A DNA stretch of 64,000 bases from a phage: assembly GCA_024613925.1 (NCBI GenBank), contig GCA_024613925.1_4713.1; one strand, 5' to 3'. Position numbers and translations under genes: made by a program. Numbering within the stretch: the first letter of the stretch is position 1; each line of letters begins with the position of its first letter. Shown piece by piece: positions 39,637 to 42,221 of this stretch. Below the pieces are notes generated by a model. That model saw only the letters and a program-made list of their open reading frames with translations, was not told the DNA's origin and did no database searches.

Positions 39637-39660
39637 TGCGGGTGGATGCGCCCACCCGCA
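39637..39660 (-). terminator. hairpin tgcgggtgg atgcgc ccacccgca downstream of thyA-like gene
   Basis: 9-bp perfect stem. Confidence 0.55.
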
Positions 39661-39668
39661 TCGTTAAT

Positions 39669-40688
39669 TTACACCGCCACCTTAGCCTTGATAGCCGGAT
39701 GTGATTGATATCCAACGAACACAAAGTCTTCGTAACGGTAATCCGTAATACTTTCCGGTTTACGTACGATTGTTAGCTTCGGTAATGGGTACGGCTCACG
39801 ACCGAGCTGCTCTTTAACCTGTTCGAAGTGGTTGTGATAGATGTGGCAATCCCCACCCGTCCACACGAACTCACCAACGTCCATATTCAGCTGTTGGGCA
39901 AGCATATGCGTCAGCAACGAATATGATGCGATGTTGAACGGTGTTCCGAGCAACACGTCCTGTGATCTGGCTAACAGCATACAAGACAAGGCACGTGTTG
40001 GTACGTTATGCGCATTCAACCAAAGTTCCGTTTCACTATGTCGTACATCATCCGTAACCCACTGAGTTCTTAATACGTCGTTGCGTTGAACATAATCAAC
40101 GCGTTCATCGACTGTGAGTTCGTGGGTATAGAACTGATAGAAACTGTGGCATGCGGGAAGCGCCATATCGTCTAAATCGCCTACGTTCCACGCGCTAACG
40201 ATGATCCGTCGAGAATCAGGATCTTCTTTAAGCTGATGTATCACGTTTGCAATCTGATCGTGAGGTTTAACATACACGAGGTGTTTTAGCATACCGTCAT
40301 TAAGAATGCCGCAATACTCATAGCCGCGTTGCATCAACTCACGAGTACGTTCTGTATCGTGCGGAACAACCACTTTGTAGTCGATCCATTCCCGCCATTG
40401 TTTGCCGTAAATCGGTCCTAGATTCCCTTCTTCGTCAGCCCATTCATTCCAGATACGAACACCGTTATCTTGAAGATAAACAACGTTTGTGTCACCGTTA
40501 AGAAACCAGAGCAGTTCGTGGATAACGCTCTTAAGGTGAATCTTCTTGGTGGTTACCAGCGGGAATCCTTTCTTCAAGTCAAAACGCATTTGACGCCCGA
40601 ATACGGAACGGGTTCCGGTACCTGTACGATCGGCCTTATCGCGACCATTATCCATGATGTCTTGCAAAAGGTCCAAATACTGTTTCAT
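39669..40688 (-). CDS. thyA: thymidylate synthase family protein with ~55-aa insertion after the active-site Cys motif
   Basis: [21 protein letters not shown] (PCH active site), [31 protein letters not shown]; 339 aa vs ~264 aa typical. Confidence 0.7.
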
Positions 40689-40897
40689 TTTAATCCTCTA
40701 AGTGTTTCGAGTAGTTCCTGAAATTTATAACGATATTTAGGATTGCTTAACGTGTAACAGCAACCATGTAACACGTTATACGCGTAATCAACTTGTAAAC
40801 CACGAACCTTCGGATCCAATGATAGATTCAACGGCGCATTATCAAAAATCCATGCTTCAATGTTCTTCTTGGATTCCTTCGTTAACATCGTTTTCAC
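40685..40897 (-). CDS. hypothetical small protein
   Basis: 70-aa ORF; 4-nt overlap with thyA start. Confidence 0.45.
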
Positions 40898-41052: not shown

Positions 41053-41601
41053 TTATTTCACGAGAACAGCGAATTCGAGAACGTAAATAATTTCGTCATC
41101 CATCGGATTTGTTGTGGTATAGCCAGCAAATTGATAACCCATATCCGCGATAAAATCGCTAAGTTTATCAATATCGCCTACATTGATACGATCGTCAACA
41201 GACAGACGACATTTACGGGTTATGCCGCATCCGCGAGGAACGCAAGATAACACAGTTAGGAAATGCGCGATCTGGTTATTGGTTGCGAACTGTGCATAAT
41301 CGTCGTAGCGTTTAAGGTCTTTCATCACAGACTCTACTGTCATACGGCGACCAGGTGACACGTACTCAGAATAAGAATAAGCTGCGATCGTGCGGCGGTC
41401 TTCAGTTAAGTAAGTGTTCCCTTCAGGATGATAACTCTCGATTGTTCCGTCTTCATAGGCGACGGTCACAACAGGTGCGCCGTACTCGTCGCGACCAAAA
41501 TCAATTTTACATTTATCCGAAAGCGGTAGAACTGTACAAGGCTTTGCGTTGTTCTCATCTGGAAGATCGTAACCGCTCATCATTTTCAAAAACATAGACA
41601 T
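41053..41601 (-). CDS. hypothetical protein, paralog of 41688..42221
   Basis: Shared motifs NNAKP and TIAAYSYS/TIATYAYS. Confidence 0.5.
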   Translation of the reverse strand: MSMFLKMMSGYDLPDENNAKPCTVLPLSDKCKIDFGRDEYGAPVVTVAYEDGTIESYHPEGNTYLTEDRRTIAAYSYSEYVSPGRRMTVESVMKDLKRYDDYAQFATNNQIAHFLTVLSCVPRGCGITRKCRLSVDDRINVGDIDKLSDFIADMGYQFAGYTTTNPMDDEIIYVLEFAVLVK

Positions 41602-41687: not shown

Positions 41688-42221
41688 TTATCTGACGACT
41701 GCGGTGATTTTGCCATCCATGCCGTCGTAATATGCTGTTAACTTACCAGTAAACAACTCTTCTAAAAGATGATTTACATCACTAACAAAGTTAGGATTGC
41801 CCGCTTTTACAAACTCGATATGACGCGTTTGTTTTACATCACGATCGATTAAACGGATTTCCAACAACGCACAAATAAGGCTATCGTTAAGTTTGCCATT
41901 CAAATCCAACGCTTTCCCATACGTCGTAGCACGGACGTCTGCATACATACGGTCAACATCATCCTTCCCAAAACCACAGGAATAGGCATACGTTGCGATG
42001 GTGTTACCATTGTCCATCACATAAACGTTACCACCTGGGTAATCGATAAATCGTTGATCCTTATCACCATGAGCGACGAACTCCAGTGTCGGTCTACCCA
42101 TCGAATCACGGTTGAATTCAATTGTGGTCAAGCGATCTGGTACCACATGCAACGTAAACGGTTTCGCATTGTTACGATCACTGGTATCGCAGTTGCCCAT
42201 TACTTTTACAATAACACTCAT
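41688..42221 (-). CDS. hypothetical protein, paralog of 41053..41601
   Basis: 177-aa ORF; shared motifs with neighbour. Confidence 0.5.
   Translation of the reverse strand: MSVIVKVMGNCDTSDRNNAKPFTLHVVPDRLTTIEFNRDSMGRPTLEFVAHGDKDQRFIDYPGGNVYVMDNGNTIATYAYSCGFGKDDVDRMYADVRATTYGKALDLNGKLNDSLICALLEIRLIDRDVKQTRHIEFVKAGNPNFVSDVNHLLEELFTGKLTAYYDGMDGKITAVVR

Follow-up and report, generated by a model that had tools for sequence, protein, structure and literature searches.

Canonical chemistry very probable for an enlarged thymidylate synthase with two inserts from a Goslar-like jumbo phage

Does an enlarged phage homologue of thymidylate synthase (ThyA) still make dTMP, or does the extra length point to a pyrimidine hydroxymethylase that feeds DNA base modification? 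The question is raised by a gene in the window, which here means the whole 64,000-nucleotide stretch of phage DNA that was analysed. According to the list of open reading frames (ORFs) and the translation, a frame of 339 codons runs without interruption on the minus strand at 39669-40688, while the plus-strand frame over the same interval contains many stops. This gene, thyA, encodes 339 amino acids followed by a TAA stop and is the orthologue of gp141 (YP_009820826) of Escherichia phage vB_EcoM_Goslar, the closest relative, in which ThyA is already annotated. The first-pass annotation had taken the enlargement as a hint of a pyrimidine hydroxymethylase. We consider that the gene is very probably the canonical, folate-dependent ThyA of a Goslar-like, nucleus-forming E. 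coli jumbo phage, and that its larger size gives no link between the protein and the hydroxymethylases.

The product was matched over its full length by the Pfam model PF00303 (Thymidylat_synt; E 3e-113, score 377.6 against a cut-off of 24.3) and carries the catalytic Cys180 in the motif MALPACH, which confirms the earlier description of a 339-residue ThyA homologue with canonical motifs including LPACH. It also scored above the cut-offs of the NCBIfam ThyA equivalog models NF002497 (414.1 bits, cut-off 327), NF002499 (412.7, cut-off 405) and TIGR03284 (356.6, cut-off 108.35). When aligned to E. coli ThyA with phmmer, three collinear blocks were obtained (residues 1-101, 144-188 and 233-339, corresponding to E. 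coli 1-101, 110-154 and 158-264, respectively), and in this core, with the inserts excluded, 173 of 253 positions are identical (68%). An AlphaFold2 monomer model built on a 70-sequence alignment reached a mean pLDDT of 95.2 and a pTM of 0.93, and Foldseek superposed it on E. coli ThyA with an E-value of 1e-41 and a target-normalised TM-score of 0.96, so that the fold is that of ThyA. By every sequence and fold criterion tested, save the residue at E. coli position Gln165, the protein belongs to the ThyA family.

The 237-kb genome of the jumbo phage Goslar is annotated with, among other genes, those for a nuclear shell protein and the tubulin PhuZ. Its gp141, also 339 residues long, is 95.6% identical to the window protein in amino acids and 93% in nucleotides, and it shares both inserts, the LPACH motif, a further 11-residue motif and the same gene neighbourhood. 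The 72 nucleotide differences between the two genes are densest at codons 121-150 and 221-260. Two more Goslar-like alleles come from metagenomes, one (P0001) on a contig of 18 kb and the other (P0002) on a scaffold of 248 kb, and the Goslar-like alleles diverge unevenly, with patches near codons 171-180 and 231-250. Gene conversion from a host thyA was considered for the canonical-looking patch in P0001 (MHLAPCH / CQLYQRSC) but is not supported, since just 21 of 30 nucleotides match E. coli thyA.

The gaps between the phmmer blocks also located the extra length. An insertion between the PCH motif and the PFNIASY segment had been described as a single stretch of about 55 residues; it is present, but the alignment confines it to residues 189-232 (insert 2; codons at 39993..40124, minus strand), where 44 residues stand in place of 3 for a net gain of 41. 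It is actually one of two, and residues 102-143 had been missed (insert 1; codons at 40260..40385, minus strand), where 42 residues stand in place of 8 for a net gain of 34. Together the inserts explain the length of 339 residues as compared with 264 in E. coli ThyA (PDB 1AOB, 2TSC), which lacks both of them and reads LAPCH where the phage protein reads LPACH. Since this two-insert architecture recurs in Goslar, SPN3US-like, Erwinia, Cronobacter and Pseudomonas jumbo phages, it is not a product of chance. In the ThyAs of Pseudomonas phage 201phi2-1, Salmonella phage SPN3US, Erwinia jumbo phages and Cronobacter phage CR5 both insert sites are occupied (with the exception of Erwinia phage Stratton, which lacks insert 1). 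These other jumbo-phage ThyAs are 36-66% identical to the window protein and vary in the middle of insert 2. The enzymes of 201phi2-1 (gp350, 457 residues, whose record describes a likeness to phiKZ gp235) and of Erwinia phage pEa_SNUABM_9 contain both inserts and bear further extra segments, and the predicted structure of the 201phi2-1 protein covers 91% of the window ThyA model.

The active site was then compared residue by residue with that of E. coli ThyA at 36 dUMP- or folate-contacting positions, chosen from established ThyA enzymology, and 30 of the 36 were identical. The catalytic Cys180 (E. coli Cys146; codon at 40149..40151, minus strand) lies in the motif L-P-A-C-H, and both this residue and His181 (His147) are invariant in the 70-sequence alignment. 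The phosphate clamp is kept, with R21, R160, R161, R241 and S242 corresponding to Arg21, Arg126', Arg127', Arg166 and Ser167, respectively. The folate and hydride-transfer set is identical at Glu58, Ile79, Trp80, Trp83, Tyr94, Asp169, Leu172, Gly173, Phe176, His207 and Tyr209, and the terminal I264V is the sole change in this set. The C-terminus (...KVAV) is retained, with the codons of V337, A338 and V339 at 39672..39680 (minus strand); the last residue is Val or Ile in nearly all relatives, Val being the commoner. In ThyA the free C-terminal carboxylate closes over the folate. Five of the changes are conservative or peripheral (R49K, I55V, N76G, P261K and I264V). The remaining one, Gln165 to Ala at residue 240 (codon at 39969..39971, minus strand), is the sole non-conservative change among the nucleotide-contacting positions checked. 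The first-pass annotation had proposed beforehand that identity at all dUMP and folate specificity residues would speak against a hydroxymethylase; such identity was found with the exception of Gln165.

In E. coli ThyA, Gln165 helps to orient Asn177, and the strand residues near Ala240 are also changed in the phage protein (Q162M, Y164L and C168Q). The loss of Gln165 could thus free Asn252 for cytosine and turn the protein into an enzyme of the T4 gp42 kind that methylates or hydroxymethylates dCMP, and the neighbouring strand changes would fit with this. From the substitutions as read, some relaxation of nucleotide discrimination may have occurred. However, position 165 varies naturally: the Burkholderia thailandensis ThyA of known structure, 3V8H, has Ile there, 23 of 100 insert-bearing representatives have Met, Ile, Leu, Ala or some other residue in place of Gln, and the 95%-identical allele P0001 has Gln. 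Judged from these sequences, the change is best treated as subfamily variation and not as a disqualifier. The residue that separates uracil from cytosine specificity (PMC8670742), E. coli Asn177, is retained as Asn252 within the motif TPFNIASY (codon at 39933..39935, minus strand), where dCMP-specific relatives have Asp. In a metagenome association study, positions 147 and 177 set apart the thymidylate synthases of contigs with unmodified DNA and those of contigs with modified cytosine (PMC8670742), and at both positions the window protein has the canonical residue (H181 and N252), Asn and His being the states that mark unmodified contigs (PMC8670742). T4 gp42 (dCMP hydroxymethylase; PDB 1B49/1B5E, its sequence verified against 1B49) belongs to the same fold superfamily and has equivalents of the catalytic Cys and Glu58, but at 246 residues it is shorter than ThyA, it is only 25% identical to the window protein, it has Asp at the Asn177 position, it lacks the ThyA C-terminus and it has no insert at either site. 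With Asn252 and a full C-terminus, the window protein lacks the marks of the gp42 type, and neither dCTPase nor glucosyltransferase is annotated in Goslar. We therefore regard action on dCMP as very improbable.

The same alignment with ThyA and with both kinds of hydroxymethylase bears on a dUMP hydroxymethylase like SPO1 gp29, which would supply 5-hmdUMP for incorporation into DNA and for later hypermodification of thymine. The resemblance is real in part: gp29 (383 residues) is larger than ThyA, belongs to the ThyA fold family and has the catalytic Cys and an Asn at the uracil-reading position, as the window protein does, and Gln165 is changed in the latter. But the two proteins are 23% identical, as compared with 67-68% between the window protein and E. 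coli ThyA. The extra length of gp29 is a C-terminal extension, without enlargement at the insert sites of the window protein. In the alignment no Trp of gp29 falls at Trp80 or Trp83, its active-site motif is P-C-N, with Asn for His147, and the ThyA C-terminal tail is missing, whereas the window protein keeps both tryptophans, P-A-C-H and the tail. The inserts thus occupy two surface sites that are not where the known hydroxymethylases differ from ThyA, and the supposed hint from size is lost.

The genomic company of the gene gives the same answer. The 5-hydroxymethyluracil pathway of phages also needs a dTTPase or dTMPase, a dCMP deaminase and a special dNMP kinase, and hypermodifying phages add 5-HMUDK and aGPT-Pplase (PMC8989533). 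The SPO1 genome encodes a putative dCMP deaminase (gp21.8) and gp22.1, annotated as a possible dUTPase/dTTPase or HMdUMP kinase. The annotation of Goslar includes a thymidylate kinase (gp008), an HD-domain phosphohydrolase and a metallophosphoesterase. No dCMP deaminase, dUTPase, dTTPase, DNA glycosyltransferase, 5-hmU DNA kinase or aGPT-Pplase is listed in the complete Goslar annotation, nor is a dCTPase, these absences resting on annotation, a weaker basis than profile searches across all ORFs. With FolA and Dut of E. coli, Frd and gp42 of T4 and gp29 of SPO1 as queries, tblastn against the window and the whole Goslar genome returned neither a DHFR nor a dUTPase, and no further gene of the ThyA fold. 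Several restriction enzymes were able to cut Goslar DNA (PMC6563267), which speaks against a hydroxymethylase; the digest concerns a phage other than that of the window, and subtle modifications would be compatible with it. Neither the sequence nor the genomic company of the window protein is that of the gp29 type, and we hold a dUMP hydroxymethylase to be very unlikely. The lineage of the window phage most likely carries ordinary thymine, and for phage ThyA homologues size alone should not flag base-modifying enzymes.

The canonical ThyA would convert dUMP and 5,10-methylene-THF to dTMP and DHF. In its core, Cys180 would act as the nucleophile, Asn252 would read the uracil, and Arg21, Arg160', Arg161' and Arg241 would clamp the phosphate, while Trp80, Trp83, Tyr94, Glu58 and the C-terminal carboxylate, by analogy with ThyA enzymology, would hold the folate for hydride transfer. 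Onto this core two lineage-specific surface modules appear to have been grafted. With no DHFR found in the window or in Goslar, recycling of the dihydrofolate would fall to the host enzyme. In a study of PhiPA3, GFP fusions of thymidylate synthase and thymidylate kinase were excluded from the phage nucleus (PMC9067925). In nucleus-forming phages thymidylate synthase is kept in the cytoplasm. The window ThyA would likewise be cytoplasmic and feed dTMP to the phage thymidylate kinase.

Insert 1 is a known type of small-domain elaboration, with a solved counterpart. In the AlphaFold2 model, residues 101-143 fold with pLDDT values above 95 into a strand, a helix and then two further strands, and the insert would add a small alpha/beta unit to the small domain. 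The PDB entry with the best query coverage was 3V8H (TMq 0.81, rmsd 2.3 Å), the B. thailandensis ThyA of 323 residues and NF010393 type. BLASTP aligned the two proteins without a gap over residues 98-168, and the small-domain insert of 3V8H matches insert 1 in length and site and shares its anchors W..YKV..H...RG[FY]...G...K..DQ. 3V8H was reached by fold search and full-length BLASTP, while phmmer against the PDB with insert 1 alone (E up to 10) gave no match. It also shares LPACH and LGTPFN with the window protein, but overall the two are 33% identical, 3V8H has other inserts of its own, and it lacks insert 2, with a 39-residue gap exactly there. The window protein scored 222 bits against the model of the long Burkholderia-type family (NF010393 / PRK13821), well below the cut-off of 576, and thus has only the small-domain insert in common with that type. 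The longer insert of Lactobacillus casei ThyA lies at the same site. In Salmonella phage SE_PL, ThyA has insert 1 and lacks insert 2. Among the four Goslar-like alleles the dN/dS of insert 1 is 0.24-0.34.

The beta-hairpin after Cys180 carries insert 2 at its tip. In the model, the strand that begins just past Cys180 runs to residue 190 and is followed by a helix (193-202), a loop (203-216, pLDDT about 70) and a second helix (217-226), forming a helix-loop-helix, before the return strand (232-244) that bears Arg241, Ser242 and Asp244. A phmmer search of the PDB with insert 2 alone (E up to 10) gave no match, and no solved counterpart was found. Homologues were taken from a library of 1.8 billion proteins clustered at 50% identity. 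Among the 150 best-scoring cluster representatives, 100 have an insertion there with a net length of 28 residues or more, a proportion that is not a frequency among ThyAs generally since the ranking favours query-like inserts. The net lengths range from 29 to 90 residues with a median of 41.5. The ends of the insert are conserved while the middle varies in sequence and length. At the start, counted from the catalytic Cys, Leu is found at +11 (60%), Glu at +15 (75%) and Arg at +16 (89%), and at the end, counted back from Arg166, Val or Ile is found at -12 (87%), Pro at -11 (91%) and Arg at -9 (59%); the equivalents in the window protein are Leu191, Glu195, Arg196, Val229, Pro230 and Arg232. From this alignment the module would be delimited by a near-invariant Glu-Arg at its start and by [Val/Ile]-Pro-x-Arg at its end. 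Insert 2 occurs without insert 1 in Erwinia phage Stratton, N4-like Delftia phage RG-2014 and Prevotella megaphage Lak-A1, and the Delftia phage, the Lak megaphage and 201phi2-1 are unrelated phages that all bear it. Judged from this distribution of sequences, the inserts appear to be independent modules.

Because thyA and td genes are classic targets of intron homing, and the Goslar-like alleles diverge in patches (codons 171-180 and 231-250), the inserts might be relics of mobile elements, such as a degenerate intein or intron read-through, or belong to a decaying gene, the extra residues being junk. Against this, the frame is intact in every relative examined, the GC content of both inserts equals that of the rest of thyA, and dN/dS is low, being 0.02-0.21 for insert 2 and 0.06-0.21 for the core among the four Goslar-like alleles. 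The inserts also fold with high confidence in the AlphaFold2 model. Pfam found only PF00303 and no intein or endonuclease domain, even in relatives with larger inserts (about 250-275 residues at site 1, and the longer 201phi2-1 and pEa_SNUABM_9 enzymes), and Rfam found no intron in thyA. A mobile relic or decaying gene is thus highly improbable. Insert 2 is a selected and integral part of the protein and not the scar of a mobile element, and a large, mostly metagenomic set of ThyAs has a conserved, selected helix-loop-helix at the tip of the catalytic beta-hairpin. Searches of the literature for a ThyA hairpin insert in phages and for human TS Gln214 found nothing relevant. The module is widespread and appears undescribed, a novelty that is modest and descriptive.

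Where insert 2 leaves the core bears on its role. It begins two residues past Tyr187, the counterpart of Tyr153 in E. coli ThyA and of Tyr202 in human TS. The human residue sits at the perimeter of the monomer-monomer interface and stacks on Phe59' of the partner; its neighbours are Arg175 in the same chain and, from the partner, Lys47', Thr55' and Asp254' (PMC9831607). By alignment, human Arg175 is Arg160 of the window protein, one of the two arginines that complete the dUMP site of the partner, and human Lys47' to Phe59' flank the Arg21 phosphate loop of the partner. In view of these contacts, insert 2 should emerge at the rim of the dimer interface, near the phosphate-binding entrance of the partner, a placement derived from the monomer model together with the published contacts of human TS. 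About one strand (10 residues, roughly 30 Å) should separate it from the catalytic Cys of the same chain. Such a location favours a structural role, and insert 2 is probably a structural element beside the partner-completing arginines, which would buttress the obligate dimer or the cross-subunit arginines and leave the chemistry unchanged.

Compatible with canonical chemistry, and with conversion of dUMP to dTMP in particular, is a more far-reaching but doubtful reading, in which insert 2 would be an undescribed, ancient and possibly phage-specific module that adds a specific new function, giving phage ThyAs a property absent from cellular ones. It might dock to a phage nucleotide-metabolism protein or into a phage assembly for dNTP synthesis, gate or regulate the active site of the partner subunit, or insulate the enzyme from the host by avoiding mixed dimers with the 68%-identical host ThyA, or by avoiding inhibitors or other factors that act on it. 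The strong purifying selection (the dN/dS given above), an Arg (89%) and a Pro (91%) that hardly vary even between very distant phages, the independent retention from insert 1 in unrelated phage groups, and the attachment at the interface rim beside arginines that reach the site of the partner are in keeping with a new function. The variable middle (29-90 residues net) and its lower model confidence are rather those of a tolerated surface loop, and no gene consistently adjacent to thyA was found in the Goslar-like relatives looked at. If insert 2 does mediate protein contacts or cross-subunit control, it would provide a handle on how phages organise their nucleotide supply. Nothing about insert 2 points to non-canonical chemistry or to modified DNA.

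The neighbours of thyA are small hypothetical ORFs on the same strand, both in the window and in Goslar. The ATG of thyA overlaps the TGA stop of the preceding ORF (70 residues, 40685-40897) as ATGA, and a Shine-Dalgarno-like GAGGA was read at 40694..40698 on the minus strand, 5 nt 5' of this ATG. Scans for promoters and terminators remained at the background level, and terminator-like signals around thyA did not exceed the expectation from shuffled sequence. A GC-rich hairpin of 9 pairs lies at 39637..39660, 9 nt past the thyA stop, with a T-rich tail on the plus strand only.

Patchy divergence was found among the four Goslar-like thyA alleles, namely those of the window, of Escherichia jumbo phage vB_EcoM_Goslar (Goslar) and of the metagenomic relatives P0001 and P0002 (window compared with nucleotide loci L001, L009 and L010). 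Codons 171-180 and 231-250, which encode the active-site strands on either side of insert 2 (residues 189-232), carried 8-12 differences per 30 nt, most other codons carried 0-5, and insert 2 itself, lying between the two divergent patches, was nearly constant. The canonical 'MHLAPCH ... CQLYQRSC' is seen in the ThyA of P0001, against 'MALPACH ... CMLLARSQ' in the other three. Judged from the alleles' sequences, the two patches look like recombination or gene-conversion tracts. E. coli thyA is not supported as the tract donor, matching at only 21/30 nt. The second patch stops a few codons before the T4 td intron site (FLG|LPFN).

Further insertions were present in other ThyA relatives. The metagenomic proteins P0124, P0131, P0143, P0148, P0150 and others carry, besides insert 2, an insert of ~250-275 residues at the site of insert 1 (residues 102-143), in which Pfam detected no domain, including no intein or endonuclease. 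Both inserts are also found in the ThyAs of two jumbo phages, 201phi2-1 (gp350, L011:301-1674, 457 aa) and Erwinia phage pEa_SNUABM_9 (L015:301-1524, 407 aa), together with another ~70-120 residues outside them; the two ORFs are unbroken, with zero internal stops. The pEa_SNUABM_9 gene is labelled only as a hypothetical protein in its record.

Many two-insert ThyAs of 339-344 aa, ~65% identical to the window protein, were encoded, in assemblies of E. coli, Salmonella and Shigella, on contigs of ~220-227 kb labelled bacterial, and one was on a 222-kb 'plasmid' record of Enterobacter ludwigii (NZ_CP134650.1). The size of these contigs and their thyA gene suggest that they are genomes of SPN3US-like jumbo phages, which the isolates carried or which were assembled together with them.

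Both ThyA and thymidylate kinase are phage-encoded. In the whole Goslar genome (loci L001 and L003-L007) and in the window, DHFR and dUTPase were neither annotated nor detected by tblastn, and no ribonucleotide reductase was annotated. Folate recycling and the supply of dUMP and dNDPs appear to be host-dependent.

Just upstream of the thyA operon, an ORF of 182 aa (41053-41601, minus strand; N-terminus MSMFLKMMSGYDLPDENNAKPCTVLPL) adjoins one of 177 aa (41688-42221, minus strand; N-terminus MSVIVKVMGNCDTSDRNNAKPFTLHVVP). Their N-termini are alike, and by sequence the two are probably tandem paralogues, corresponding to Goslar gp143 and gp144, each of which is followed by a terminator-like hairpin according to the Goslar annotation.

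The sole Rfam match at the gathering threshold in the window was IS009 (RF02111; 6685-6883, minus strand, 163 bits). The offset from thyA (~91,964 bases) maps this segment to Goslar gp089, a tail-fibre-assembly gene that adjoins a P1 gpS-like tail fibre gene and is noted in the Goslar record as similar to a Shigella phage SfIV protein. If this mapping holds, the match sits in coding sequence and marks no independent sRNA gene.
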